A DNA stretch of 64,000 nt from contig OY970327.1 of assembly GCA_963717365.1 (NCBI GenBank), positions 395,599-459,598 of the forward strand. The letters are read 5' to 3'. Positions 5,402 through 56,707 of this stretch are shown here, piece after piece. The notes under the pieces are model-generated. The model saw only the letters and a list, made by a program, of their open reading frames with translations. It was not told where the DNA came from and did no database searches. How positions within the stretch are numbered: the first letter of the stretch is position 1; each line of letters opens with the position of its first letter. This stretch comes from Candidatus Saccharimonadia bacterium. GTDB taxonomy: Bacteria; Patescibacteriota; Saccharimonadia; Saccharimonadales; 2-12-FULL-41-12. The translations under genes were made by a program, and so were the position numbers.

Positions 5402-6763
5402 ATGGATCCGAAGAACGCTAAGCTGCCCCCCCAAAATACCGAAGCAGAAGCCAGCTTGCTGGGAGCTATCTTAATTGATAGTGATGCTATCGTTAAAATC
5501 GCCGATGTTATTACAGTCGATGACTTTTATGATGAGCGGCACGGACATATTTATGACGCGGTTAAGAACTTATACGACAAACACAGCCCCATAGACGTCT
5601 TGACACTTACGAATGAGTTAAGAAACAACGGCTTACTTGATACAGTGGGTGGGTCATCGTATGTTACTGAACTGACTAATTTTGTACCGAGCGCCGCGCA
5701 TGTCATGCAATACGCCGAAATAGTGTCGACTAAAGCAATGCGCCGCCGGTTAATTAAAGCCAGCCAAGATATTATTACGCTTGGTTACGATGAATCAGAG
5801 GGTCTCCAGTCTCTGGTAGAACAAGCCGAAACACGATTATTTGAAGTTAGCCAAAAACAAGTAAAACAAGATGTGGTCAGCCTGGAACAGGTGCTTAGCG
5901 ATAGTTTTGAGCGGTTAGATGAGCTTCATAAAGATAAAGGCACTATCCGCGGCGTACCTACAGGGTATAAAGATCTGGACAATATTTTGGCCGGATTGCA
6001 ACGCGGAGATTTGATAGTCTTGGGCGGGCGGCCTAGCATAGGCAAAACTGCTATGGTCTTAAACCTGGCTCATAACGTGGCAGTGTCTTCACAGCAACGG
6101 GTGCTTATGTTTAGCCTTGAAATGGGCAAAGAGCAGTTGGTAGACCGTATGCTAGCCCGAGAATCCGGCGTAGACGCCTGGGCGCTGCGTACCGGTAACC
6201 TAAGTGATACTGATTTTGAAAAAATTGGACAAGCCATGGGAACTCTTAGCGAAGCGCAGATATATATTGATGACAGTCCAGGCATAACCGTTAGCGATAT
6301 GCGCACTAAAGCCCGGCGCGAAGCGCACCAGCACCCATTAGGATTGATTATTGTCGACTATTTGCAATTAATGAGTGGTGGCAGTAAGTTTGGCAGTGAT
6401 GCTGGCAACCGAGTGCAAGAAATCTCGGAAATCTCGCGCGGGCTAAAAGGCATTGCTCGTGAACTTAATGTGCCGGTTCTGGCACTGAGTCAGCTTAGCC
6501 GTACCGTAGAAAGTCGCAGCCCGCCAATTCCAGGACTGGCTGATCTGCGTGAATCCGGCTCGATTGAGCAGGACGCTGACGTCGTAGCATTCCTGTACCG
6601 CGAGGAATATTACAACCCGGAGACAGAACGGAAAAATGTGATGGATGTGTTCATAAAGAAGCATCGTAACGGGCCGACTGGTGGTGTAGAATTATACTTT
6701 GACCGCGAGAAACAGCGAATCAGAAGTATAGATAGCCGTCACAGTACGCCATTTGATAATTAG
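5402..6763 (+). CDS. dnaB: replicative DNA helicase
   Basis: PPQNTEAEASLLGAIL N-terminus, GGRPSIGKT Walker A, IVDYLQLM, and ALSQLSR with an ESGSIEQDAD C-terminal core. Confidence 0.95.
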   Translation: MDPKNAKLPPQNTEAEASLLGAILIDSDAIVKIADVITVDDFYDERHGHIYDAVKNLYDKHSPIDVLTLTNELRNNGLLDTVGGSSYVTELTNFVPSAAHVMQYAEIVSTKAMRRRLIKASQDIITLGYDESEGLQSLVEQAETRLFEVSQKQVKQDVVSLEQVLSDSFERLDELHKDKGTIRGVPTGYKDLDNILAGLQRGDLIVLGGRPSIGKTAMVLNLAHNVAVSSQQRVLMFSLEMGKEQLVDRMLARESGVDAWALRTGNLSDTDFEKIGQAMGTLSEAQIYIDDSPGITVSDMRTKARREAHQHPLGLIIVDYLQLMSGGSKFGSDAGNRVQEISEISRGLKGIARELNVPVLALSQLSRTVESRSPPIPGLADLRESGSIEQDADVVAFLYREEYYNPETERKNVMDVFIKKHRNGPTGGVELYFDREKQRIRSIDSRHSTPFDN

Positions 6764-6765
6764 TA

Positions 6766-6793
6766 GCTGCATTACCGTTTGCAGCCTGTTTTG
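6766..6793 (+). terminator. weak terminator-like hairpin after dnaB
   Basis: GCTGCA/TGCAGC stem (6766-6771/6780-6785) followed by a T-rich tract CTGTTTTGTT. Confidence 0.35.
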
Positions 6794-6808
6794 TTACAAT
6801 AAAGCAAG

Positions 6809-8008
6809 ATGAAAATACCAAAAACTAGTTTTAAGCGCATCTGGGCTACTGTGACAGATTTTACTCGACGACTTATCCTGCCGTTACTACTAATCGTCAG
6901 TGCGCTCGGACTGTTGGGCTATCATTTGTTCCGGCACGTACCGTATGGTCCGGCCGAATTCGCTGCAACGCTGGGTTCAGCTACTCTGAGCGCTATAAAA
7001 AATGACATACTGATTGCTCCCGTCAAAGGAGCTCAAATTATTGCACTTAAACTTACAGAAAATGACATATACATGCGACTGGCGTCCGTAGCGGTAGCGG
7101 TAGTGGCCGCTGTTTTGTTGTATGCCATGTTGCGACGATGGTACACAACACGGGTATCATTTTTGACATCAGTTATGTTTATTACTTCAAGCTGGTTTCT
7201 GCATCATGGGCGGTTAGCCAACCTAGATGTAATGTATTTGACCGTCATACCGGTGCTCTTATTGATTTGCCTATGGTTCTTGTCTAAGCATAACGATAAA
7301 AAATATCCGTTAGCAGCTATACTTTTAGCGCTTGTACTTTATGTGCCCGGTACATGGTTATTTATTGTTGGTGGGCTATTTTTTGTACGTAAGGTCGCGC
7401 TTAAGGCGTTTACAAAAGTGTCGCTCCGTATTCGATTGGTCAGCGCGGTGGCTATGCTACTTACACTAGCGCCGCTTTTTTATAGCTTCGCGCTCAAGCC
7501 AGGTCAAATAAACCGATGGCTCGGCGTAGATACAAGCCAAGAGCTGTCCTTACCGGCAATCGGTAACCGTCTGATAGATATCCCACAGCAACTATTGTTA
7601 ACCGGCCCCGATGACCCGACACGCTGGTTGGTTGGCACGCCTGTATTTGATATATTTTCTTTAGCCATGATAATAATGGGTTTGTATGCTTTTCGGACTG
7701 GATACTATCCAACCAGGGAAAAACTAGTGTTCGGGGCTTTATCTATAGGTATCATACTTGTTGGATTTGGAAATGTAGTGACGCTAGGTATACTAATACC
7801 GCTGTTTTATATTGCTATTGCTAACGGTATTTCATATATGTTGCAGAGTTGGTTTACGGTGTTTCCACGCAATCCTCTTGCACGTACCATTGGCGTAGGG
7901 CTCTTAGTTTTAGTAATTACCGGATCATGCTTCTACCAGCTGCAACGTTATTTTGTAGCATGGCCAGCAACAGCAGCCACTACAAAAGCGCTTACTGCAG
8001 AACGCTAA
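6809..8008 (+). CDS. polytopic membrane protein, possibly ArnT/PMT-type (GT39-like) glycosyltransferase
   Basis: 399 aa with roughly 10 hydrophobic segments. The family assignment is only an impression from overall architecture. Confidence 0.6.
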   Translation: MKIPKTSFKRIWATVTDFTRRLILPLLLIVSALGLLGYHLFRHVPYGPAEFAATLGSATLSAIKNDILIAPVKGAQIIALKLTENDIYMRLASVAVAVVAAVLLYAMLRRWYTTRVSFLTSVMFITSSWFLHHGRLANLDVMYLTVIPVLLLICLWFLSKHNDKKYPLAAILLALVLYVPGTWLFIVGGLFFVRKVALKAFTKVSLRIRLVSAVAMLLTLAPLFYSFALKPGQINRWLGVDTSQELSLPAIGNRLIDIPQQLLLTGPDDPTRWLVGTPVFDIFSLAMIIMGLYAFRTGYYPTREKLVFGALSIGIILVGFGNVVTLGILIPLFYIAIANGISYMLQSWFTVFPRNPLARTIGVGLLVLVITGSCFYQLQRYFVAWPATAATTKALTAER

Positions 8009-16725: not shown

Positions 16726-16800
16726 TGGGGCGTCGCCAAGTGGTAAGGCACCAGTTTTTGGTACTGGCATTCGGGGGTTCGAATCCCTCCGCCCCAGCCA
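16726..16800 (+). tRNA. tRNA-Gln (anticodon TTG), CCA encoded
   Basis: Hand-folded cloverleaf: TGGGGCG/CGCCCCA acceptor (U1:A72), anticodon arm CCAGT-TTTTGGT-ACTGG, T arm GGGGG-TTCGAAT-CCCTC, G73-CCA. It is close to the E. coli tRNA-Gln pattern. Confidence 0.9.
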
Positions 16801-16801
16801 A

Positions 16802-16838
16802 TTAAATAAGCTTAGCTTCTGCTAGGCTTATTTAATTT
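16802..16838 (+). terminator. long hairpin/terminator after tRNA-Gln
   Basis: 15-bp stem TTAAATAAGCTTAGC/GCTAGGCTTATTTAA (one G-U pair), loop TTCT, followed by TTT. Confidence 0.55.
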
Positions 16839-16841
16839 ACA

Positions 16842-16958
16842 GGAGGGAAGCGAACCCGCAGGGTTCGGCGAACGAGGAACTGAGCTAAAACCAAGCTTGC
16901 TTGGCTTTAGCGAGTACCGCAGGAAGAAGCACAGGCAAAGCCTGTGCGCCATCCCTCC
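16842..16958 (+). other. GC-rich structured element (four-way junction) of unknown function
   Basis: Closing stem GGAGGGA (16842-16848)/TCCCTCC (16952-16958) encloses three hairpins at 16851-16867, 16884-16911 and 16929-16947. It is much more GC-rich than its flanks. Confidence 0.3.
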
Positions 16959-16964
16959 GCCCCA
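16951..16964 (+). repeat. 14-bp direct repeat of the tRNA-Gln 3' end (att-like scar)
   Basis: ATCCCTCCGCCCCA occurs at 16783-16796 inside the tRNA and again at 16951-16964. Confidence 0.7.
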
Positions 16965-17037
16965 ATCGTAGGTACTCATTATTTATCAATGAACTACTAG
17001 TAAACACCTTTTAAGCCAGATATAATGCTAGGAAATT

Positions 17038-19617
17038 ATGTCACTTTCTCAATTTATGTCGATGCATGGCTCCAAGATGGGTTATTTAGAAACTACATTT
17101 TTAAATAATGTCTATTTTACGGACTACGGTGACAGTGGATTAGAGTTTATCACCCCAGAAGTTGAAATTGACCGTAACGATGGAACGAACCGAACCTGGA
17201 GAATCGATTTTGTTGTTGAAACAAAAAATAGAAAATATGCAATTGAATGTGATGGTTTTAATTATCACGCCCCTGGGATGGTTTCTAAAGAGAGATTTAA
17301 TGAACTTGAACAAAAGAGAAATGAAACCGTCCGACAAGGTTTTCTTCCGGTTAGCCTATCTCGAGATCAAATAGTAGATGAGCCGCATGAAGCGATCTAT
17401 CAGCTAAGACGCATGTTTAATGCCGATCCCGAACTTTACAATATATTTCTTAAGCGAGTGTCAGACCAAATATCTCCGCATGAAGTTCAGCAAAAAGCCC
17501 TGGAAGCACTTGAGGACGCTAGAGAACAAGAGCAAAACAAGGGCTTAGTCGTCCTTGCAACTGGTTTAGGCAAAACCTACTTAAGCGCGTTTGATGCTAA
17601 AGCAGCAGCCGCGAAGCGAATTTTATTCGTAGTACATGTTGATCATATTCTTAAGCAAGCGAAAAATTCCTTTGAAGATGTTATGCCTACTCGAGCTGAC
17701 GAAATGGCATTTTTTAACGGTAGTAATAAGAATATCGAGGGAAAAAATATAATTTTCTCTACGATTCAAACTCTTACTCGAGAGAAAAACTTATCACAGT
17801 TCACGGCTGATAGTTTCGACTACATTATTATGGATGAGTCTCATCATGCTGCGGCTCCCAGCTACAAGCGTGTGCTTGAATATTTTAAGCCAAAATTCCT
17901 GCTTGGTTTGACCGCAACCCCAGTGAGGATGGACGAACAAGACATATTGCCTTTCTATAACGACAATTTGGTGTTTGAAATGAACCAAGCTGACGCAATT
18001 AAACAGGGCTATCTAGCTAGTCTCAACTATAAGGGCTTTAAAGATAACGTAGACTATTCCAATATTTTCTATAATGGCTTCCGGTACGATGTTAATGATT
18101 TAAATAAGTCGCTCATGATTGAACGCCGCGACCAAGCCGTGCTTTCAAAATTTGAAGAGCTTGCTGCAGGTAAGAAAACTATTGGCTTCTGCGTCTCAAT
18201 AGAACATGCTGAATGGTCCGCCAACCACTTTAGAAAAAACGGCATCGATGCGGTTGCAATTCATTCCAAAATTGAAGCCGGCAATTCGCATGATTATCAA
18301 ACTGCCAGCGAAATAATTGAAGCATTTGATAAAAATAATCATCAAGTTGCTTTTGTGGTAGATATGCTTAATGAGGGCATCGACATACCTGACGTTGAGT
18401 GTTTACTTATGCTCAGGCCCACCGAGTCTAACGCAATACTCACGCAGCAAATTGGCAGAGGGCTAAGAATAGCACCCCTAAAGGATGAGGTCTTAGTCTT
18501 GGATTTTATTGGTAATTACCAAACAGCACCGCGCATTCTAACTGGTTTAGGAGTTAACAACGTTGGAGACCTAAAAGAAGATAAAGAAAAAGGAATTTAC
18601 TATTATGAAAACGAGGGCAGGCGGGTAGAATTCGAGAGTGAAGTTGTAGATATATTCAAATTTATGCTTAGCCGTTCGTCTCGCAGTGTCAGAGAAGAGC
18701 TTATTGAAGATCACTGGAAAGAATATGGCAGTTATCTAGAAGAAAACACAAAAACTGGCAATAGCCTTTTCTGGAGTGTTGGGAAGAAGAATAATCACCT
18801 TGGGGTACATCTTTGGGCATTAGATTTCTTGGTAAACAATGCGGATAATTACTCCACTAACGAAGAACTGTCTGAAGAATTAAAAAAAGCGTCTGTTGAG
18901 CAATTTCCAGATAAGACAATGGAAGGTATTAGAGCATTATTTTTTAGTAAACTAATCGGTTTACTAGTTAGCACAAACCCGATCAAAACATCGTCCGCTT
19001 ATCAAAGTATTGTAGCTAGTGGCAAACAGCTACAGGACCAAGCTGCTATTGATAATTTGGTGACCAATCAGCTAGAAAAATATTATTTTTGGAATGATAA
19101 CTTTAGTTTAACGAACCGACATGAAACTAGCGGTAATGGCAGAATTAGAAAAGTGGATGAGCTATTTCATATTTATCCGTTATTCTTTATTTATGAGGTT
19201 ATTATTCGATTACATGACCTGGGATACACCAGTGACCATCTAACAAAGTTTGAGGTAAACACCTTTCTGGCATTAGCTAGAACTAATGATGAAGTGCGCG
19301 CTGTCGTAGATAGAATTATGCAGTATCGTGAACATGAAGAAATATATGAACTTGAGAAATATTTAAAACAAAAATCTGGTATGGATGCTCGATTCTTCAA
19401 AGTTTTACAATATTCTAAATACTTTGCATACTCGCCAGACAGAATAGGGCTTAAGTCCGATTATTTTGGAGAAGTGTCTACTAAGGTTTCAGAGTTCAGA
19501 AAGTTACGGAAAAATAACAAGCTTATTGAATTTACTAAAACGCAGCCCGCTCGCTATATGAAATTACTGTTTTCTTCTGACGACCTGATAACGTATCATG
19601 TTCTGCGTAATCAGTAA
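17038..19617 (+). CDS. DUF559/Vsr-like endonuclease domain fused to an SF2 (ResIII/DEAD-type) helicase plus a ~330-aa uncharacterised C-terminal domain
   Basis: N-terminus WRIDFVVETKNRKYAIECDGFNYH (D...ExDG..H pattern). Helicase motifs ATGLGKT, MDESHH, GLTATP and QQIGRGLR. The C-terminus is unassigned. Confidence 0.85.
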   Translation: MSLSQFMSMHGSKMGYLETTFLNNVYFTDYGDSGLEFITPEVEIDRNDGTNRTWRIDFVVETKNRKYAIECDGFNYHAPGMVSKERFNELEQKRNETVRQGFLPVSLSRDQIVDEPHEAIYQLRRMFNADPELYNIFLKRVSDQISPHEVQQKALEALEDAREQEQNKGLVVLATGLGKTYLSAFDAKAAAAKRILFVVHVDHILKQAKNSFEDVMPTRADEMAFFNGSNKNIEGKNIIFSTIQTLTREKNLSQFTADSFDYIIMDESHHAAAPSYKRVLEYFKPKFLLGLTATPVRMDEQDILPFYNDNLVFEMNQADAIKQGYLASLNYKGFKDNVDYSNIFYNGFRYDVNDLNKSLMIERRDQAVLSKFEELAAGKKTIGFCVSIEHAEWSANHFRKNGIDAVAIHSKIEAGNSHDYQTASEIIEAFDKNNHQVAFVVDMLNEGIDIPDVECLLMLRPTESNAILTQQIGRGLRIAPLKDEVLVLDFIGNYQTAPRILTGLGVNNVGDLKEDKEKGIYYYENEGRRVEFESEVVDIFKFMLSRSSRSVREELIEDHWKEYGSYLEENTKTGNSLFWSVGKKNNHLGVHLWALDFLVNNADNYSTNEELSEELKKASVEQFPDKTMEGIRALFFSKLIGLLVSTNPIKTSSAYQSIVASGKQLQDQAAIDNLVTNQLEKYYFWNDNFSLTNRHETSGNGRIRKVDELFHIYPLFFIYEVIIRLHDLGYTSDHLTKFEVNTFLALARTNDEVRAVVDRIMQYREHEEIYELEKYLKQKSGMDARFFKVLQYSKYFAYSPDRIGLKSDYFGEVSTKVSEFRKLRKNNKLIEFTKTQPARYMKLLFSSDDLITYHVLRNQ

Positions 19618-20659
19618 TGTGGAGCTTAATCTCATCCGCCAAAGCCTTTGCCATCATGGGTGGAACTGCATTTCCAACTTGCAACATTTGATTAGTTTTA
19701 GGGCCATAAAACCTAAAATTATCAGGAAATGATTGAAGCCTGGCCGCTTCTCTTACTGTGATACACCTGTCTTGGTGTGCCAGCGTAAACTGTCCGGATG
19801 CAGGCGTGTCAAATCTGGTAGTAATGGTGCGAGCAAAGCCGGCGGGATTAATCCGGCTCCAGGTGCCGCTATGGATTGATTTGGTTCTGTGTTCAAACGG
19901 TAAGTCCGCTTTAGTTCCTCCTATTGGGATATAAGCAAGACGCTCTAAGGCAATTAGACTGTGCTTGGTTGCTATGTGGTTCCATATACCGCTGGAGTTT
20001 TTGCGCATGTTTTTCTGATAGCTTGAGCGGGGCGAATAAGTATAGGGCATAAACTCAGCCCCCTCACCCGATCTAAGTTTTGGTAAGTCATTAATTGCTT
20101 CAGCTACTGATGTACTAACGCCGTTACCGTCAGGTAAATCAAAATCGAGTTTAATTTTTCGTCCTAAAAAAACAGCTCGGCGGCGCGTTTGAGGAACTCC
20201 AAAATTTTCTGCTTTAAGTATTTTTGCTTTTACGTCGTAGCCCAGATTACCGAATAATTCGATGATTTGTTTTTTAAAATAACCTTTTTCCGCAGTTAGA
20301 ATAGTAGGCACATTTTCTAATAAAAAGAATTCAGGCTGCACAATATCAACAACTTTTACAAACTGCTGAAACATAAAGTTCCGTTTATCATAGATCCCAG
20401 TTCTTTTACCTTTTTGAGAAAAACCCTGGCAGGGTGGTCCACCCATTACTACCGTTATTTTGTTTTGGTAAGGACCAAACACTTTTTCAAAATCTAAATC
20501 ACATATATCAGAGGAATCTACTAACGTATCTGGATGATTTTTTTTGTAGGAGTCAGCAATTGTCTGGTCATATTCATTCGCAAATACTATCTTGAATCCA
20601 GCTTGGGAAAAACCAAGTGATAATCCTCCTACACCGGCAAATAAATCAATCACATTCAT
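19535..20659 (-). CDS. DNA (cytosine-5)-methyltransferase
   Basis: Motifs DLFAGVGGLS (I), GGPPCQGFS (IV), ENV (VI) and QVGNAVPP (X). Confidence 0.9.
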   Translation of the reverse strand: MNVIDLFAGVGGLSLGFSQAGFKIVFANEYDQTIADSYKKNHPDTLVDSSDICDLDFEKVFGPYQNKITVVMGGPPCQGFSQKGKRTGIYDKRNFMFQQFVKVVDIVQPEFFLLENVPTILTAEKGYFKKQIIELFGNLGYDVKAKILKAENFGVPQTRRRAVFLGRKIKLDFDLPDGNGVSTSVAEAINDLPKLRSGEGAEFMPYTYSPRSSYQKNMRKNSSGIWNHIATKHSLIALERLAYIPIGGTKADLPFEHRTKSIHSGTWSRINPAGFARTITTRFDTPASGQFTLAHQDRCITVREAARLQSFPDNFRFYGPKTNQMLQVGNAVPPMMAKALADEIKLHITDYAEHDTLSGRQKKTVISYSERAAF

Positions 20660-21411
20660 AATAATTTAGGAGTTTTTAATAAGTCGATTATTCTCTGTAA
20701 CGCAATTTTATAATAATCTTCTTCAAGCTCTATGCCATGAAATTTTCGATTCATATTTACAGCCGCAACACCGGTTGATCCGCTACCCATAAAAGGATCT
20801 ATCACCGTCTCGCCCTCATCGGTCAATATGTTAATAAAATGCTCCAGTAGTGCCACTGGTTTTTGAGTTGGATGTTTCCCGTACTTCTTTTCTTTAGCGC
20901 CAATAACAGAAGATTCAAAATAATCATGAATTACTTTACCTTTATTATTAAATTTTCCTGTCTTAGCTCCATTTACAAAATAAATCCATGCTTCAGTAGA
21001 GTTAACAAAATGCAGATTCATATTACGTGGCATTGGATTTGTTTTATGCCATATACCGGTAGTTTTATAATAAAATCCGTTTTGTTGTGCTAGCTTAATT
21101 ATTGTTTCTACCTTCATAAGTGAAACAAATACAATTGCAGCTCCACTTTTTTTTAGCACACGAGCTGACTCTTTAAAGAATTGATCCATGTGCAGCTCCC
21201 ATTCTGTTTGCTCAATATGATCCCAATTACTGGCAGCAAAATGATTTGCACGCAGAGCGCCTAAATTTGTATCTCGACCCTGCATGAATAAGCCAAGGTT
21301 GTAAGGGGGGTCAGTTAATAATAAGTCCACCACACTTTCGTTGATTTCTGTCATTTTTTGCACACAGTCACCCATAGCAAGAGTGCAGTCTTTAGTAAGC
21401 TGGCTTTGCAT
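20656..21411 (-). CDS. beta-class amino DNA methyltransferase (N6-adenine or N4-cytosine)
   Basis: TDPPYNLG (motif IV) precedes DPFMGSGSTGVAA (motif I). Start placed at the ATG at 21411; the track uses a TTG at 21456. There is a 4-nt overlap with the C5-MTase start. Confidence 0.85.
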   Translation of the reverse strand: MQSQLTKDCTLAMGDCVQKMTEINESVVDLLLTDPPYNLGLFMQGRDTNLGALRANHFAASNWDHIEQTEWELHMDQFFKESARVLKKSGAAIVFVSLMKVETIIKLAQQNGFYYKTTGIWHKTNPMPRNMNLHFVNSTEAWIYFVNGAKTGKFNNKGKVIHDYFESSVIGAKEKKYGKHPTQKPVALLEHFINILTDEGETVIDPFMGSGSTGVAAVNMNRKFHGIELEEDYYKIALQRIIDLLKTPKLL

Positions 21412-21499
21412 ATTACTAATATTATACTGTTTATACTGGCGCAGGACTATCAACAAAGAATAAAAAGTATTATGTTATTGTATTTTGAACTGAAAATCT

Positions 21500-21868
21500 T
21501 TACTTAACTAAATTCCCACTAGTATCAAAAAACAGATTATCCCGAGTACTAAACCCTTCACACGTAGTTGATCTGTTTTTCCCCGACTCCAATACAATAC
21601 CGTCTACGATATTACTGCTTCGCAGATCGTAATATCCATAGCACCCGCCTACTTTGTCGTCACTCTTATCCAAGCAACGGGCGTGATTAGCACCATCTTG
21701 ATAATGACAGCTATAATTTGCTGCTTTTTGTGTCTCACTAATAGGGCGGGTAGAATCGCTTTGCGGCTGCGGTTCGTTTTTAGTAAGGACATATACAGCC
21801 GCGACAACACCCAGTATCAGCACAGCAGCAGCAATCAGTTTTAAAATTTTATTTTTAGCCATAGGCAC
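21500..21868 (-). CDS. hypothetical membrane-anchored/secreted Cys-containing protein
   Basis: N-terminal TM/signal anchor ILKLIAAAVLILGVVAAVYVL. No recognised domain. Confidence 0.55.
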   Translation of the reverse strand: MPMAKNKILKLIAAAVLILGVVAAVYVLTKNEPQPQSDSTRPISETQKAANYSCHYQDGANHARCLDKSDDKVGGCYGYYDLRSSNIVDGIVLESGKNRSTTCEGFSTRDNLFFDTSGNLVK

Positions 21869-21911
21869 AGTATACCTAGTTTACTTATAGTGTTAGTAAT
21901 TATTTTTCTAT

Positions 21912-22442
21912 TTATGTTTCGGCGGTTACTATGCGACCATGCACAGTATCGTCGGCAGCGACTCGATCAAAACCAGTAACAGACAGTAGCCATGTTTTAG
22001 CGTAACTTTGGGCAATTTTTATATCACCGTAAACGGGACGTAAACTTGCAACACGGGCGATGTCGACGCCACACACCGCGATAGTGCCGGCTTCCCTGAT
22101 GGACAGATCCAGCTCACCGGCCAACATCCCGTATTCTTCTGTTGGGTGTGCGCAATCAACAGAAATATCGCCCTCATTGGTGCTAATGCATAGTTTTGAA
22201 AGTATAGTGTCGACCGGCAGCCGTATTCTAAGACAAGCTTCTTGCTCGTCACCTTCAGAGGAGTCCACCTGGTTAACTATCAATTGCTTGTTAATGCGGT
22301 CATGCACAAAGCACTCCGGCGGCATAGCTTCGAGCACCGCTTCAAACAGAGAAGGATCGGTTACAACCTTTACTTCTGTATTATGTACATTTATATAGAT
22401 TTCTCGAAGAATTTCCGTAGTGCACTGCGGTGCTATAGCCAT
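21912..22442 (-). CDS. hypothetical protein
   Basis: 176-aa ORF. The overlapping ORFs in other frames look like artefacts. No motif recognised. Confidence 0.55.
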   Translation of the reverse strand: MAIAPQCTTEILREIYINVHNTEVKVVTDPSLFEAVLEAMPPECFVHDRINKQLIVNQVDSSEGDEQEACLRIRLPVDTILSKLCISTNEGDISVDCAHPTEEYGMLAGELDLSIREAGTIAVCGVDIARVASLRPVYGDIKIAQSYAKTWLLSVTGFDRVAADDTVHGRIVTAET

Positions 22443-22654
22443 AGTTATATTATTATATCATAAATATTATTTATAAGCAATTTGTGGGCTTAAATGGTAA
22501 AAAGACATTGCTGTGACAGAATTTTTTATTATCGCCTTATACCGAACCTAACATATTCATGTACAAGCGACCCACCAAAGAAAAAACGAGAGAAAATCTC
22601 TCAAGTAAGTTCTAAGGTGGGTCGCGTACGACTAGCTAGTTGGTGTAGGCGGAC

Positions 22655-23374
22655 CTACTTGGGCTTGTTCGAGTTCTCCTCGCCGGTGTCCATGCTGACC
22701 TGCCCGTTGCGAACGGTGGGGCGACGCTCGGAGTTGCGTCGGCTGTAGAGCTCAACGCCCTCGAGCTTGGCGCCGTCGCGTCCGTTGTGGATGACGGCCG
22801 GCACGAAGGTGTAGACGTTGTCGTCGCGGTTGGCGTTGACAGCCTCGACAGCGATCATGTCCGGATGGTTGGTCGGAACGACCTGGTGCTCACCCGGGAT
22901 GACGTAGGTCGAGACCTGGTAGCGGTAGAACGACCCGGTGCCACTGTTCTTGGCGGAGTAGACCACCGGAACGATGGACTTGATGTTCGGCTTCAGCCGA
23001 GCGACGATGACCTCCTGGGGGAGATCCTTGCCGCCAGCCACCTTGTCGCCCGAAACGTGCACGACCGCGCCATCGTTGGTGCGGTTCGAGAAGTCGTGGG
23101 GATGCTGGGTGGTGCCGAAGCACGATACGACCTCGACGTGACCGTCGGTGTACTCCACGAGGGCGTACAGGTCGTAGTCCTTCTTGCCCCACGTCGTGAT
23201 GAGGGTGTAGACGCCGCCTGGCGACTTCTTCATCAGCATCGTCTCACCCTGGGTGACCTTCTTCGTCGTCATCATGCCGGAGCCAGGAGGCGCCTGCGGG
23301 GATGCCGAGGGAGCGGAAGCCTGGGGAGCCGATGCAGGCGGGGCAGTCTTCTTCATCTTATCCATGAAACCCAT
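22655..23374 (-). CDS. GC-rich foreign gene; possible TerD-domain stress protein with a Pro/Ala/Ser-rich N-terminus
   Basis: 239 aa with codons strongly G/C-ending. By-eye alignment to the TerD pattern: WGKKDYDLYAL, DGAVVHVSGDKVAGG..EVIVARL, VVYSA. The CDS call is solid; the product call is tentative. Confidence 0.6.
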   Translation of the reverse strand: MGFMDKMKKTAPPASAPQASAPSASPQAPPGSGMMTTKKVTQGETMLMKKSPGGVYTLITTWGKKDYDLYALVEYTDGHVEVVSCFGTTQHPHDFSNRTNDGAVVHVSGDKVAGGKDLPQEVIVARLKPNIKSIVPVVYSAKNSGTGSFYRYQVSTYVIPGEHQVVPTNHPDMIAVEAVNANRDDNVYTFVPAVIHNGRDGAKLEGVELYSRRNSERRPTVRNGQVSMDTGEENSNKPK

Positions 23375-23568
23375 GTGTTTGCTACCTTTCGCTAGTCGTG
23401 TTCTGAACTCTGATTAGAGTCAGTAAAATGCGATAAACAAATTGTGAAGGTTCATATGACCACCTCTGATGGGCAATCCTTCATATTATACATTAATATA
23501 CTTAAATTTACAAATAGATGAGGTAGCCCAGTCTAGGAAAGTTACATTAAGTTTACGAGAAAGGTTGC

Positions 23569-24003
23569 TTAGCGCCGGTAATTTTCTAAGTATGAATTAA
23601 CATTCTCGATATCGCTGCCGACGTAGGCATAGGTATCTGGTCCTATGTCACAAAAATGCTTTACTGTAAAAGGTTGCACCGTGCTCTCGTCTTCAAAGAT
23701 AATTACTACCTGGTAAATCTCTTTATGTAGTACTCGCCTGAGTAAATTCTTTTCCACACATAGTGCTGTGAAGAGATCTCTTCGGGTATTAACTTCCTCA
23801 TCTTCTACAAAATCAGGGGTATCGAACACATATAACTTAGTTGCTCTATCATTCGGCTCACATAGCACAGCTAATGATTTATCTTGATACTTTGATTCAC
23901 TACTATACACGGGGAAGATATGAGTTCTACCGGGCAACAATAACATTGTATTTTGTTTAGGAACGGGGAGGGTTTCATTTATAAGAAATGAGGGCATAGT
24001 CAA
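23569..24003 (-). CDS. hypothetical protein
   Basis: 144-aa ORF with no recognised motif. Confidence 0.5.
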   Translation of the reverse strand: MTMPSFLINETLPVPKQNTMLLLPGRTHIFPVYSSESKYQDKSLAVLCEPNDRATKLYVFDTPDFVEDEEVNTRRDLFTALCVEKNLLRRVLHKEIYQVVIIFEDESTVQPFTVKHFCDIGPDTYAYVGSDIENVNSYLENYRR

Positions 24004-24050
24004 ATAGTATCAATTCTAGCATTAAAATAATACTGCTAAGACATACGGGG

Positions 24051-24518
24051 CTAACCCCTACTACGCCTAACTTCTACCATGCCCGGTGCACGACCATCAG
24101 GAAGTTGTGGACTATTACAAACTGTTACGGTAATGGTACGTCCAGCTTTTGCGGCGCGCATCGTTAAAGGACCCAGGCAACCTTGGGTGAGAATAGAGAT
24201 GCCCTTAGTAGCTTCATCGCGAGCTAGTTCAATATTATCAAGCATTTGTGCCGCCCCGATACGTAGACCTTTAGCTATATTCTCTGGTGAAGCAACTTCT
24301 TCAACGCCATCAACTTCCGGGTCTATAATGCCAGCTTGTTTGAGACTTTCAAATATTGCTGGGGCAACCGCGGAATCAAAGCTATCGTCAACAACCGATT
24401 TTTCAATAGTTTCTGCCATATTTTTCATCGATTCATCAATACCGATTGCATACACAACATCAGGACAGCCATCACAATTTCCCGTACAAAGTTCACTCAT
24501 AATTAACATATTATACAA
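24051..24518 (-). CDS. hypothetical protein (N-terminal CTGNCDGCPD cluster)
   Basis: 155-aa ORF. It is preferred over the antisense 24079-24612 ORF, which is Ser-rich and low-complexity. Confidence 0.5.
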   Translation of the reverse strand: MYNMLIMSELCTGNCDGCPDVVYAIGIDESMKNMAETIEKSVVDDSFDSAVAPAIFESLKQAGIIDPEVDGVEEVASPENIAKGLRIGAAQMLDNIELARDEATKGISILTQGCLGPLTMRAAKAGRTITVTVCNSPQLPDGRAPGMVEVRRSRG

Positions 24519-24643
24519 AATTACTTATATAGATGCAAATGCATGTCCTTATAGTATTACAGTCCACGAAATGAGCAATATGGCGATAATATTTATAGAT
24601 GCAATGGTATAGTTAATCATAAGCATAACCATAAGGAACAGAC

Positions 24644-26260
24644 ATGGCCCTGACTGACCAGCCAATCTGGCAGCAATTAGCAAATTATCAGCAAGCACAC
24701 CAAGGCCGCAATTTACGCCAATTGTTTGCCGAAGACGCCGAACGGGGTACAAAATTTGGGCTGCAAGCCGGTGACATCTACTTGGATTTCTCAAAAAATC
24801 TGATTGATACCGATGGGCTAAAGATGCTGTTTGAACTGGCGCGGACACAAGGGGTAGAGACTAAGCGCGACGCAATGTTTGGCGGCCAGCATATTAATAC
24901 CACGGAAGACCGGGCGGTACTCCATACGGCGCTCCGCAATCAAGCCGATCAGCCGGTTATGGTGGACGGCACTGATGTTATGCCGCAGATCCACCGAGTT
25001 TTAGAACGCATGACAGCTATAAGCACGGTTGTACGCCATCAGGGTTGGTTGGGACACACCGGGAAACCAATTAAAAATGTTATTAATATTGGCATTGGCG
25101 GTTCGGATCTTGGACCTGTAATGACTACTGAGGCACTAAAGTATTATAGCCAGAGTGATATTATTATCCGTTTTGTTTCTAATGTTGATGGTACGCATAT
25201 GGCGGAAGCAATCAAGGATCTTGATCCGGCGGAAACGTTGTTTATCATCGCTTCAAAGACCTTTACAACTGATGAGACGATGACCAATGCCCAGACAGCC
25301 AGGGGCTGGATCGTGAACGCCCTGCATGATCAAGGAGCGGTGGCTAAACATTTTATCGCTCTTTCTACCAACCGCGAGAAGGTTACAGAATTCGGCATTC
25401 ATCCAGATAATATGCTAGAAATGTGGGATTGGATTGGCGGCCGTTATTCTTTAACCAGCGCGATAGGCTTATCAACTATGGTCGCTGTTGGCCCTGATCA
25501 CTTCAAAGACATGCTTAAAGGTTTTTATTCGATGGATGAGCATTTTAAAACCGCGCCCCTTGAACAAAACGCCCCGGTAATTCTTGGTTTATTGGGCGTT
25601 TGGTACAGTAGTTTTTATGGAGCCGAGACCGAAGCTATATTGCCGTATGATCAATATCTGCATCGATTTCCAGCCTATTTGCAACAGGCGAGTATGGAAA
25701 GTAACGGCAAGAGCGTAGACCTGTCAGGTAACATGGTTAATTATCGAACGGCACCAATTGTCTGGGGTGAACCTGGCACAAACGGCCAGCATGCCTTTTA
25801 CCAATTACTTCATCAGGGAACGCATTTAATACCATGTGATTTTATTGGCTTCGCCCACCCACTCAACCGAATAGGCGTCCACCACCGTAAACTAATCGCC
25901 AATATGTTTGCTCAAAGCGAAGCGCTGGCTTTTGGAAAAACCCGGGACGAAGTAATGAACGACATCGTTCCCGACACGCTAGTGCCCCATAAAACTTTCC
26001 CTGGCAATCAGCCCAGCAACACGCTGCTCTTAACGATGCTTACTCCGCATACACTTGGACAACTGATTGCGCTATATGAGCATAAAATATTTGTACAAGG
26101 AGCGGTCTGGAATATAAATTCGTTCGACCAGTGGGGTGTGGAACTGGGCAAAGCCCTGGCAAAAGGAATTTATCCTGAGCTTGAAATCAATATGAAGGGC
26201 TATCACGATAGTTCAACCCGCAACTTAATGAGCATGTACCGGAATCTGACCGGTAATTAG
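24644..26260 (+). CDS. pgi: glucose-6-phosphate isomerase
   Basis: 538 aa with the conserved blocks [23 protein letters not shown] and SMESNGK. Confidence 0.95.
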
Positions 26261-26296: not shown

Positions 26297-27454
26297 ATGC
26301 TTTTTCTTCGCTATAGTGCAACGGTGACTAAAATATTCAGCAAGAAGCATATCAAAGGTAAAACCCAACGGTTGGGGATTGGCGTTGCCTTACTATTAGT
26401 AACAACATTAGTAGCAGCGTATCAGCTCACCAGCCAACCAGGCCAAACCCCTGACTTGCCGAAACCTGCCTTAAAAGAACTGGCCGCAAAGAAAGGCATT
26501 GATATTGGTAACTTTGCCATCCCAAGCCGCCTAGATGAGCAGGCTTATCATGACATCTTGACCCAACAATTTAATGTCGCGTTGCTTGATAACACGCCTA
26601 ATTGGCATTTCACCGACTATGATTTGCGCCCATCCGAAACCGAGTTTGATTTTAGCCGTATCGATAAATTAGTCGAGTACGGCGAAGCCAACGATCTTAA
26701 AATGCAAGCCCACCACTACACCTGGGGTGAAGAGAAGTGGCTGCCAGATTGGCTGAAAAATGGTAACTACACCAGTGAGCAACTGCTAGAAATTATTCAC
26801 AACCACATTAGCACCGTGGGACAGAGATATAGTGGCAGAATTCAAGAATGGACAGTAGTGAACGAAGCTTTCACTCGTGAACAACATTTCTTTGACCTGC
26901 ATGATTGGTGGGCTGACAATATTAATAATCAGCAGGCCTATTTAGATAACTCCTTCCGCTGGGCTCGTCAAGCCGACCCAAAGTCAGTGCTCATTTTAAA
27001 TGATTTCAATAATGAAAGTATTAATGACACCTCTAACGCTATGTATGACTACATTAAAGGCGCCAAAGCCAGAGACGTACCGATTGACGCCATTGGTATG
27101 CAAATGCACATTGACGGCGGCCATCCACCGACCAAAGACGAAGTAATATCTAATATGAAACGGTTTGCAGCTCTGGGCGTGAAGGTTTATGTGACCGAAT
27201 TTGACGTTAATATGAACGATCTTAAAACAAATGCCAAAGCCAAAAACGAAGTCGAAGCCAATATCTATTACGAAATGATGCGCGCCTGTATAGAATCGCA
27301 AGTCTGTCAAAGCTTTTCAATTCTCGGCATCACCGACAAAGAAACCTGGTATAACCATATTGGTCTCAAAGATCCTCGGCCACTACCATTTGACGAGCAG
27401 TATCGCCCAAAACCAGCTTTTTACTCTTTGCGCTGGGCACTTGAACAACAATAA
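26297..27454 (+). CDS. membrane-anchored glycoside hydrolase family 10 (endo-beta-1,4-xylanase-like)
   Basis: N-terminal anchor. GH10 catalytic blocks EWTVVNEAF (acid/base) and VYVTEFDV (nucleophile). Confidence 0.8.
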   Translation: MLFLRYSATVTKIFSKKHIKGKTQRLGIGVALLLVTTLVAAYQLTSQPGQTPDLPKPALKELAAKKGIDIGNFAIPSRLDEQAYHDILTQQFNVALLDNTPNWHFTDYDLRPSETEFDFSRIDKLVEYGEANDLKMQAHHYTWGEEKWLPDWLKNGNYTSEQLLEIIHNHISTVGQRYSGRIQEWTVVNEAFTREQHFFDLHDWWADNINNQQAYLDNSFRWARQADPKSVLILNDFNNESINDTSNAMYDYIKGAKARDVPIDAIGMQMHIDGGHPPTKDEVISNMKRFAALGVKVYVTEFDVNMNDLKTNAKAKNEVEANIYYEMMRACIESQVCQSFSILGITDKETWYNHIGLKDPRPLPFDEQYRPKPAFYSLRWALEQQ

Positions 27455-54917: not shown

Positions 54918-54966
54918 CATTTACAGAAATCAATCTGTTAGTTAGAATAAGTAAGTTCAGATATAT

Positions 54967-55270
54967 TCCGGGGTAGCTCAGCGGTAGAGCGGGTGGCTGT
55001 GAATACGCAGCCTGATTTGGGCAACCAATCAGTGAAAATAGGGTGAATTGCGGGAAGCCTACGTGCAATTGCATATGGTAATCCGCAGCCAAGCCAGGAT
55101 TAGGTTAAAAGATCCAGGAAGGTTCAGAGACTAGAGGGTGAGCCTAACAATAATCTCTCAGACAGCGCCCTACATCCTTGCAAAGGATGATGATATAGTC
55201 CACGCCACTATGAAAGTAGTGAATAAGTGTAACCACTAGGTCGAAGGTTCGAATCCTTTCCCCGGAGCCA
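54967..55270 (+). tRNA. tRNA-Asn (anticodon GTT) interrupted by a group I intron; exons 54967-55000 and 55230-55270, CCA encoded
   Basis: The joined exons give a 75-nt cloverleaf: TCCGGGG/CCCCGGA acceptor, GCTC-AGCGGTA-GAGC D arm, GGTGG-CTGTTAA-CCACT anticodon arm, GAAGG-TTCGAAT-CCTTT T arm, G73-CCA. Confidence 0.8.
55001..55229 (+). ncRNA. group I (self-splicing type) intron in the tRNA-Asn anticodon loop
   Basis: Conserved core blocks AATTGCGGGAAGCC (55046-59), TAATCCGCAGCCAAGCC (55079-95), GGTTCAGAGACTAGA (55121-35) and GATATAGTCC (55192-201). P1 has a U-G pair at the 5' splice site and the terminal base is G at 55229. P2, P8 and P9 hairpins are present. Confidence 0.8.
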
Positions 55271-56707
55271 AGAAATGAATTCCTGATGTTCAGCCATTAA
55301 ATTGAATGGCGAATTGAACTCCCACAGGAGTTCTTTTCTTTTTAAGCGCAAGTTCGAGAGTACCATTTCTACTAACATCCGTTTCTGCTCAATGTTCGCT
55401 CTTTGAAACAATTCTGGGGCGTTTTTTGATAGCTTGAACAGATGAGTGACTGTTCCATAGTAGTCATCTTCTACAAGTTCTAGATTTACACGCTTATTCT
55501 GCAATGACTTCTGGGAATGTCTGTATTCTTCAAATTTTCGGTCATATAGGCTTTCTGGAATCTTTTCATCCAGGTAATCCTCATATACTTTTTCAATACG
55601 AGTTTGATACTTTTCTATTTCAACGTCTAGGTTCATCAAAGTAGTTTCACGTACGCGTTTTTTGTCCTCGTGAGAGCTTCGTAGAGCCTCGCTAACTTGC
55701 TTATATGCTTCAGGCGGAATCTGTATGCTCTTGAAAGCTTTCATTAATTGTTGGGTCAGTAAATCTTCGGATACGTAAGCTATCTTGTGCTTGGCTTTGC
55801 CAAGTGTACAGTGGCCGTAAATATAGAGACCTTTCTTCCGTTCAAAAGTTACTCGGCACCCACATTCGGCACATTTAATTAATCCTCGATACACAAACGG
55901 TAGTCCTGCCCAACGATACTTTTTGATATTGAAGCCTTTGCGAATGCTATCTGCTTGATCAAACAAGTCTTTTGAAATTATTGGTTCGTACTTATGAGTG
56001 TATAGTTCGCCTTTAACCCGCATGTCTCCATGGTAGAAAGGGTTTTGAAGTAATGCGTCTAGCTGACTTCTGGATAGACTTAAACCATAGGATTCATTCC
56101 AATTCTTGCTCAATTCTTTAACCGATATAACTCCTGAAGCGTATTGAGTGAATGCGTCCCTAATTGCGTCAGCCTTAAAAGCGTCAGGTTCTATCCATTT
56201 CTTACCATTTGGCAACACAGTGTTTCTATAACCAAAGGGAGCCATACCAGCCCATTCGCCGTCACGCCACTTCTGCTCAAACCGGCGTTTTACATTGTCA
56301 CTTATTGCGTCTGAATAGTATTGAGCGACAACAATACCCATACCCAGACGTAATAGGTCTGTTGCCGGAGAGAACTGATTGATAAACAAATTGTCTGATG
56401 GAAAGTGAAGCTCAATTTTTCCGCCACGATACAAACTTTGCAGAATCCTTACTTCTTCCGAACTACTATCTCTTGTATACCTATCTATTTTGTCAAAAAC
56501 GACTATGGCTTTTTCATTCCAGTTTTTGATTTCATCAACCACGTTTTTGAATTCATCCCGATTGCCCTTATAGGCGCTTTCTTTGAGTTCAAACAGTTGA
56601 AAGTCATAATCCCTCCGTTTGGCATACTCTAATAATCGGTGGGTTTGCGCTGGAAGCGCGTCTTTCTGGTCGTCAGTAGATACTCTGGCTAATAGATAAG
56701 CTTTCAT
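55208..56707 (-). CDS. large serine recombinase (integrase)
   Basis: N-terminal resolvase catalytic motif YLLARVSTDDQ, a recombinase domain, a Cys-rich zinc ribbon (CAECGCRVTF...GHC) and a coiled-coil C-terminus. The last 20 codons are antisense to the tRNA-Asn 3' exon and the intron end. Confidence 0.9.
   Translation of the reverse strand: MKAYLLARVSTDDQKDALPAQTHRLLEYAKRRDYDFQLFELKESAYKGNRDEFKNVVDEIKNWNEKAIVVFDKIDRYTRDSSSEEVRILQSLYRGGKIELHFPSDNLFINQFSPATDLLRLGMGIVVAQYYSDAISDNVKRRFEQKWRDGEWAGMAPFGYRNTVLPNGKKWIEPDAFKADAIRDAFTQYASGVISVKELSKNWNESYGLSLSRSQLDALLQNPFYHGDMRVKGELYTHKYEPIISKDLFDQADSIRKGFNIKKYRWAGLPFVYRGLIKCAECGCRVTFERKKGLYIYGHCTLGKAKHKIAYVSEDLLTQQLMKAFKSIQIPPEAYKQVSEALRSSHEDKKRVRETTLMNLDVEIEKYQTRIEKVYEDYLDEKIPESLYDRKFEEYRHSQKSLQNKRVNLELVEDDYYGTVTHLFKLSKNAPELFQRANIEQKRMLVEMVLSNLRLKRKELLWEFNSPFNLMAEHQEFISWLRGKDSNLRPSGYTYSLLS

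Follow-up and report, generated by a model that had tools for sequence, protein, structure and literature searches.

Why should the last bases of a tRNA gene stand twice on the same strand, with 154 bp of non-coding DNA between the copies? The question arises in a 64-kb stretch of a Candidatus Saccharimonadia genome (hereafter the window), in which tRNA-Gln(UUG), a gene that encodes its own CCA, occupies positions 16726-16800 of the + strand (ARAGORN; Rfam tRNA, 61 bits). The final 14 nt of this gene before GCCA, ATCCCTCCGCCCCA, comprise the end of the T loop together with the 3′ strands of the T stem and the acceptor stem, and they occur at 16783-16796 (D1) and again at 16951-16964 (D2), on the + strand both times. 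Saccharibacteria and other Patescibacteria have tiny genomes with few recognizable mobile elements, yet they exchange genes freely. The duplication reported in an initial annotation of the sequence proved to be exact: a search of the whole window returned these two copies and no further one with up to two mismatches, no 10- to 12-mer of ATCCCTCCGCCCCA recurs within the window, and two matches arose in 0 of 100 shuffles. That annotation had also seen no third copy, and nothing in the 64 kb qualified as one, or as a distal attachment site of the adjacent R-M island; the nearest match (23024-23040) carries four errors and falls inside a protein-coding ORF of 62% G+C.

Directly downstream of the tRNA, the duplicated unit, which we call a module, opens with a terminator-like hairpin (16801-16836, 36 nt, + strand). 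Folding gives it 16 bp, the 5′ arm containing a run of A and the 3′ arm a run of T, in keeping with the hairpin first noted between the copies; it is A/T-rich with a T-rich 3′ arm, and a simple terminator scan does not flag it. The segment that follows has a G+C content of ~60%, compared with ~43% for the region, and had been drawn as a GGAGGGA/TCCCTCC stem closed around three hairpins. The minimum-energy fold of 16838-16968 (−55.3 kcal/mol, z = −4.3) agrees, giving a four-way junction in which GGAGGGA (16842-16848) pairs with TCCCTCC (16952-16958) to form the closing stem P1, around hairpins at 16851-16867 (P2), 16874-16920 (P3) and 16929-16947 (P4), all described here on the + strand.

Fuzzy matching to the T-arm reverse complement and folding together identified an antisense arm, GGAGGGAAGCGAACCCGC (16842-16859), as an inverted copy of the tRNA T arm in 15 of 18 bases; its bases 16842-16848 supply the 5′ strand of P1 and 16851-16857 that of P2. 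The 3′ strand of P2, GGGTTCG (16861-16867), is identical to tRNA positions 16775-16781 and was assigned from sequence, fold and class A model alignment as a sense copy of the T-stem 5′ strand and the start of the T loop. Taken together, the antisense arm and GGGTTCG imply that the second tRNA copy consists of the T arm plus the acceptor strand, its loop split by an 83-nt, two-hairpin insert (16868-16950) and its antisense strand serving as a clamp. Within the insert, P3 is a long variable hairpin (core 16884-16911) whose length differs among relatives, one of which (L006) has an extra ~110 nt there, and P4 has the form GCACAGGC-AAA-GCCTGTGC, with a homologous helix that covaries across its class. 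By repeat search and fold, D2 contributes 16952-16958 to P1 and leaves 16959-16964 unpaired. The window holds one such module of ~170 bp (16801-16964). Its identity to the tRNA ends exactly after the acceptor strand, with the upstream 14/14 bases intact and ATCG in place of the GCCA that most relatives have there; this break looks like a junction rather than drift, with the R-M island starting at it.

On the anchoring side, the module is bordered by tRNA-Gln and then by a VanY/LdcB carboxypeptidase gene, part of a conserved left flank that also includes glycosyltransferase and AI-2E transporter genes. VanY/LdcB homologues assign the window to the Saccharibacteria (TM7, Saccharimonadales). Beyond D2 and outside the module lies a variable island of 7.6 kb (16965-24640; assigned from Pfam, composition and synteny) with Pfam matches to a REase-like/ResIII helicase (17038-19617, +), a C5 methyltransferase (19535-20659, −) and an N4/N6 methyltransferase (20656-21456, −), alongside five ORFs without Pfam hits. 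One of these five, an ORF of 239 aa at 22655-23374 (−) with a G+C content of 62% against ~43% for the genome, looks like a recently acquired foreign gene within the island. Core metabolism restarts with PGI at 24644, and a GH10 gene lies among core sugar-metabolism genes at 26297-27454. Setting the island boundary by synteny failed, because the comparison found no right-side genes common to the window and its relatives.

Relatives were fetched via VanY as 80 loci, one genome per species, and ~46 of these had a tRNA-Gln with sufficient downstream sequence. At ~16 of the 46 loci with VanY-tRNA-Gln synteny, a second copy of the last 14-22 nt of the locus's own tRNA lies within 115-265 nt. In most cases this copy is free of mismatches, and in most it extends through the discriminator and CCA. 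Identity spans 18-22 nt in relatives versus 14 nt in the window. Seven different 14-mers, representing acceptor and T-stem variants, are each faithfully copied in this genome set. About two thirds of the syntenic relatives, which are not near-identical pairs, have no module; these loci show a terminator only, units that are truncated or in decay (L008, L010, L078), or a tRNA followed at once by unrelated genes. Neither of the closest relatives with a module (L005, L006) has the R-M island, and L019 and others likewise carry a module at the same place without it. The initial annotation had offered the segment as the left boundary of this island, among other options, and had reasoned that the same segment without an island in related genomes would indicate a conserved native structure. 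By that test, relatives such as these argue against the segment being simply a boundary or scar of the island. No description of such modules was found in the literature searched, and the family is apparently both widespread and undescribed.

A scan of metagenome contigs for a tRNA 18-mer, a gap of 114-174 nt and the 14-mer returned 98 stretches, from which 97 units were parsed. Because the pattern required both 14-mers, the set over-represents well-preserved copies, and only two of its figures are unbiased: the variable acceptor dinucleotide is equal in tRNA and copy in 92 of the 97 units, and GCCA follows the copy in 68. The common plan begins with the terminator-like hairpin, found in almost every family member, and continues with an antisense segment of the T arm, a further two or three hairpins, and a sense copy of 14-22 nt. 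The antisense arm matches the reverse complement of the local T arm at a mean of 11.7 of 17 positions (8.5 for shuffles) and tracks T-stem variants, for example in L019 and L057. A sense copy of the variable loop and T-stem 5′ strand was tried as a general feature and abandoned (8.4 matches of 13 versus 7.6 by chance), being clear only in classes A and B1. These are two of several sequence classes, and the window module falls in class A, with L019 and L126 as its nearest members.

Modules were seen only directly after tRNA genes, for the most part tRNA-Gln of Saccharibacteria, or after earlier modules. The same type occurs at tRNA-Gln(CUG), tRNA-Glu and tRNA-Asn: in L199 (645-905) a module follows tRNA-Glu(UUC), with a 13-nt copy and then AGCCA, and in L112 (816-1400) tRNA-Asn is followed by two tandem units. 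Modules are thus not confined to tRNA-Gln. All 103 phage-encoded tRNAs examined lacked one. Human-gut contigs of 58-61% G+C (L114, L116, L118, L129, L144, L150, L167, L168, L171, L173 and L174), whose organism is probably not a member of the Saccharibacteria, carry 1 to 2.3 tandem modules after tRNA-Gln with a 182-nt period and a truncated unit at the array end; copies in this lineage, as in the window, are not followed by GCCA. For the segment, Rfam 15, whose families include tmRNA, Y-RNA-like RNAs and self-cleaving ribozymes, matched nothing beyond genuine tRNA at gathering or permissive thresholds, in the window (E ≤ 10) or in 10 relatives (E ≤ 1). A tmRNA or permuted tmRNA was set aside, as ARAGORN finds none and the element has no T loop and no tag. 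BLAST against plasmids matched the tRNA part alone. Elsewhere in the window, a ribosomal protein L10 leader (1445-1578, +, Rfam 59.9 bits) is an ordinary feature.

At least two copies lie within 4 kb of each other at 14 of 94 loci. Array spacings are either 116-184 nt, for bare modules that are sometimes of mixed class, or 0.4-2 kb, in which case the interval holds one gene. Single-gene cargo includes GH10, NmrA-like, MFS, Fic-like, HIT and NYN examples, and in L062 the GH10 glycoside hydrolase sits between two near-identical modules. Many units are directly followed by another hairpin and unit, and distal array copies show more decay. Sequences in the human-gut lineage form a mosaic: identity ranges over 90-99% in the flanks, 100% in the tRNA, 38-100% in the hairpin and 84-100% in the core, in incongruent combinations. 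In L145 and L198, a 67-nt core is common to both at 100% identity within unrelated flanks. The tRNA-Gln genes concerned differ (UUG with CGCCCCA and CUG with CATCCCA, respectively), and each module copies its own tRNA end. An identical core at different tRNAs points to recent movement or exchange of the core, and the own-end copies indicate that both repeat copies are local.

Covariation in homologous loci, named at the outset as a check on the fold, strongly supports the pairing in classes A and B1. When 14 class A1 units are aligned with plain MAFFT, the P1/P2/P2a/P4 structure pairs 81% of cells, compared with 44-58% for slid partners. A covariance model (R1) derived from these same 14 units, with the window sequence left out, matches window positions 16840-16968 over its full length at 21.9 bits (E about 5e-4 in a window-only search with rough calibration), the low score marking the window element as a divergent class A member. 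A weak R1 match within the helicase gene (17567-17698) was regarded as spurious. The model-guided alignment of 42 R1 matches, which leans toward the model's own structure, has 83.5% of cells paired versus 45-54% with slid partners, changes on both sides at 18 of 25 pairs, and 81 double-change cells against 28 ± 4 in shuffles (0 of 500). Pair 170/319 of the P4-homologous helix, for instance, is GC in 15 cases and CG in 13. Class B1 provided an independent check, with compensatory changes at 24 of 35 pairs (RNAalifold, plain MAFFT). Junction and loop motifs are also conserved within classes, among them GGCG(U/A)AGCG, AGCGGAGGAG, a CAGUGG loop and CGCAAGG. The family to which the window element belongs, as a complete member, has a fixed layout, helices that covary and junction motifs that are conserved, and the remnant of a lost element that was first considered does not fit this description.

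Several asymmetries distinguish the two strands. Where just one partner of a pair has changed, the result read on the tRNA-sense strand is nearly always U.G or G.U (e.g. CG 17, UG 17, UA 6). In 63 of the 97 units the + strand gives the stabler fold (p = 2e-4), cores are purine-rich on the + (tRNA-sense) strand, and for the leading hairpin the + strand version is the stabler in 77 cases versus 15. These wobble-type changes and biases argue that the fold is selected on the tRNA-sense strand, where, judging from sequence, it would act as RNA or as single-stranded DNA. A minus-strand RNA with a primer-binding-site-like start was rejected, since wobble variation, fold stability and purine bias all favour the + strand; no consistent leftward promoter was found after the distal copy. 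A cloverleaf is a possible drawing and a plausible reading of class B1, in which GGGGUG × CNNCCC would form the acceptor-like helix, whereas the window element has no good acceptor 5′ strand.

The small structured RNA among the initial proposals stands in so far as the fold is real and conserved. As an account of the modules, it is the main rival, which we judge unlikely though well worth weighing. A tRNA-linked non-coding RNA would arise by read-through transcription from the promoter of tRNA-Gln, or by processing of a precursor that contains both tRNA and module, and would function as RNA; on this view mobility, arrays and cargo are secondary. Such an RNA could mimic the top half of a tRNA or serve as a decoy for a tRNA-binding or processing factor, or could regulate tRNA-Gln maturation. 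The 3′ tail is identical to the tRNA acceptor strand plus CCA, with GCCA retained behind the copy in 68 of the 97 units, and the 5′ part is antisense to the T arm. The double changes in class A and the compensatory changes in B1, the near-exclusive U.G/G.U character of one-sided changes, the + strand stability and purine-rich cores, the class-specific motifs and the acceptor-like helix of the B1 cloverleaf are all consistent with it, and attachment regions of clade phages resemble promoter-to-terminator small RNA units ending in a tRNA-Gln 3′ part. However, a strong, + strand-biased terminator-like hairpin separates the tRNA from the module in nearly every unit, there is neither room for nor sign of a separate promoter, the window copy has no CCA, and Rfam offers no match. 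The patchy distribution also argues against an RNA, with modules in about one third of syntenic relatives, truncated or decayed copies (L078, L008, L010), several unrelated classes at the same site, mixed-class arrays, and modules flanking cargo genes.

The duplication had first been read as the classic footprint of site-specific integration, and this holds in part. Its shape is that of a T-loop-type duplication and tRNA-Gln is a real target in the clade, but no integrase lies nearby: tblastn with a TM7-phage integrase query found none in the window or in ~180 loci, and Pfam found no recombinase domain in the island ORFs. In phage contigs of the clade, a partial tRNA-Gln comes after an integrase gene, which establishes tRNA-Gln as an integration site in the Saccharibacteria clade. 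The TM7 phage attachment regions (L090/L091, L095, L099/L102, L101 at about 5948-7014, and L103) run from the integrase through a strong sigma-70-like promoter and a ~110-130-nt leader to a 34-60-nt tRNA-Gln 3′ part and a terminator, an order of parts that matches a small transcription unit; in L091, the leader contains an inverted T-arm-like stretch. In IMG/VR viral contigs, the class A1 and B1 cores had no matches, and the sole match to a B2-like pattern was an unrelated high-G+C coding region, which was discarded. The window contains a second tRNA (54969-55271, +), missed by ARAGORN, with a group I intron in its anticodon loop (54965-55222, Rfam 96 bits). A large serine recombinase gene with Resolvase, Recombinase and Zn-ribbon domains (55208-56707, −) abuts or overlaps the 3′ exon of this tRNA, and the locus is probably an element integrated there.

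Could the module be an inert scar, left when a phage or island at tRNA-Gln was almost wholly deleted down to attL, a few bases and attR, with the fold incidental? Partial tRNA copies are the usual integration footprint (PMC9897764), TM7 phages use tRNA-Gln, the region downstream of this gene is hypervariable, and some units are clearly decaying. Yet independent deletions would not yield the same bounded architecture at more than 100 loci, and covarying helices and class-specific conserved motifs would go unexplained. The antisense arm follows the host's T-stem variant (L019, L057), identical cores recur in unrelated loci, and phage identity blocks of 34-60 nt start at the anticodon arm, in contrast to the 14-22-nt T-loop type of the modules. 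Family-level conservation largely refutes the scar, which we regard as quite improbable. Replication template switching at the tRNA terminator hairpin would give a direct-inverted-direct "tandem inversion duplication", which slippage would then maintain or enlarge. It would account for the copy order of sense (tRNA), antisense (the arm) and sense (D2) with hairpins at both junctions, for a first palindrome that extends into the tRNA end (AGCCA...TGGCT) in ~13 of 97 units and for the tandem expansion with truncated last unit in the gut lineage, but the extension is just 2 bases in most units, and inserted class-specific covarying hairpins, mixed arrays, cargo and identical cores at different tRNAs are left unexplained, which makes it very improbable.

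We tentatively favour, at somewhat less than even confidence, the interpretation of the modules as small non-autonomous insertion/recombination modules that duplicate the local tRNA 3′ end. The family layout, which R1 detects in the window, is present at some syntenic loci and absent from the rest, and copies track the local tRNA, with all seven 14-mers reproduced. The L145/L198 core, the arrays with single-gene cargo and decayed distal copies, the mosaic exchange in the human-gut lineage, the occurrence at other tRNAs but at none of the phage-encoded ones, and the use of tRNA-Gln by clade phages all argue in the same direction. Known parallels add to this, namely the arrays of tycheposons and the identity blocks of T-loop-class integrases; blocks that begin in the T loop and reach the 3′ end were reportedly described by Williams in 2002 as typical of one class of tRNA-targeting integrases. 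On the other side, there is no recombinase in or beside any module, class A1 and B1 cores are absent from IMG/VR viral contigs, and the conserved unpaired motifs and G.U-type variation look more like functional RNA. Conservative recombination with an element-borne tRNA end would also explain always-local copies poorly, so that a duplication mechanism or later conversion must be assumed.

The antisense and sense copies pair, P1 stacked on P2, and on the tRNA-sense strand this closes a junction of four or five helices. On the insertion interpretation, the folded single strand would present a duplex image of the T-arm region of the tRNA gene, and this may be the form recognized by a putative trans-acting recombinase or integrase. 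Entry would occur at the T loop or 3′ end of the tRNA, keeping the tRNA intact, supplying it with a fresh terminator and leaving the second copy of the local 3′ end on the far side of the module. Repeated events would push older modules and their single-gene cargo outward, generating arrays. The insertion and structured-RNA readings could both be true, by analogy with other mobile elements that encode structured RNA.

Overall, the modules may represent either a new tRNA-anchored cassette system, comprising a folded unit analogous to integron attC or CTX attP, a putative trans-acting enzyme and single-gene arrays, or an RNA family that mimics the top half of a tRNA; that either is new in this sense we hold to be possible but doubtful. 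A cassette system of this kind may be spread through streamlined genomes, those of Saccharibacteria and of some other bacteria. If so, the modules would offer a searchable handle on cassette gain, including that of defence islands such as the R-M cluster of the window, and would constitute either a folded attachment site of a new type or a new family of tRNA-mimic RNA. They would also explain one class of the "partial tRNA" signals met by annotation pipelines. The question can be tested directly, as Saccharibacteria are in culture and are naturally transformable.

Among known systems, the attL/attR duplications left by T-loop-type integration into tRNA genes come close, since their direct repeat is likewise the segment from the T loop to the 3′ end, with an intact tRNA on one side. 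Tycheposon islands form arrays separated by partial tRNAs (bioRxiv 10.1101/2020.12.28.424599), and the modules resemble these in that partial tRNA copies separate the units, older ones lie outward, and a variable region follows beyond. Unlike both, the modules have 110-190 bp of non-coding, highly structured DNA between the repeats with no integrase in cis, they include an antisense T-arm copy, and both repeats are always the local tRNA's version.

Integron attC sites and CALIN arrays share an imperfect palindrome with a strand-specific fold, covarying arms and structure conserved while sequence varies, as well as bare units and single-gene cassettes arrayed at one anchor, often without an adjacent recombinase. 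In contrast, the attC core sites R″ (RYYYAAC) and R′ (GTTRRRY) are absent from the module ends, which are tRNA-derived (GGAGGGA..., ...ATCCCTCCGCCCCA). The 3′ boundary of the window module has no GTTRRRY, and no intI-attI-Pc platform lies beside this module, whose neighbours are tRNA-Gln and the VanY/LdcB gene. The arms of the modules are tRNA T-arm copies, the repeat is 14-22 nt rather than 7, the junction motifs are conserved, and the folded strand is the tRNA-sense strand. In the attP of CTX-type phages, two inverted target copies, separated by ~100 nt, base-pair with each other and so imitate the duplex target. Integration of such elements (IMEX at dif) regenerates the target, allowing tandem arrays, and a host-encoded recombinase acts in trans. 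The modules share the inverted paired copies and the arrays, and a recombinase acting on them in trans would be a matter of analogy; they differ in targeting a tRNA gene rather than dif and in having no phage genome.

Casposon/Cas1 integration, with its 14-15-bp duplications of tRNA 3′ ends, offers another parallel, because the 14-22-nt repeat of the modules is a target-derived duplication at a tRNA 3′ end and both copies are local, as a staggered-cut duplication predicts. On inspection, however, the modules do not end in terminal inverted repeats, the loci examined showed neither Cas1 nor PolB, and there is no casposase-sized ORF within a module. REPINs, which RAYT transposases mobilize, are also short non-autonomous units of two inverted repeats (REP doublets) that form a long single-strand hairpin in intergenic DNA beside terminators. 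REPINs, however, are scattered genome-wide and have a GTAG-type head, whereas the modules occur only after tRNA genes or earlier modules, and the sequence they repeat is the tRNA's own.
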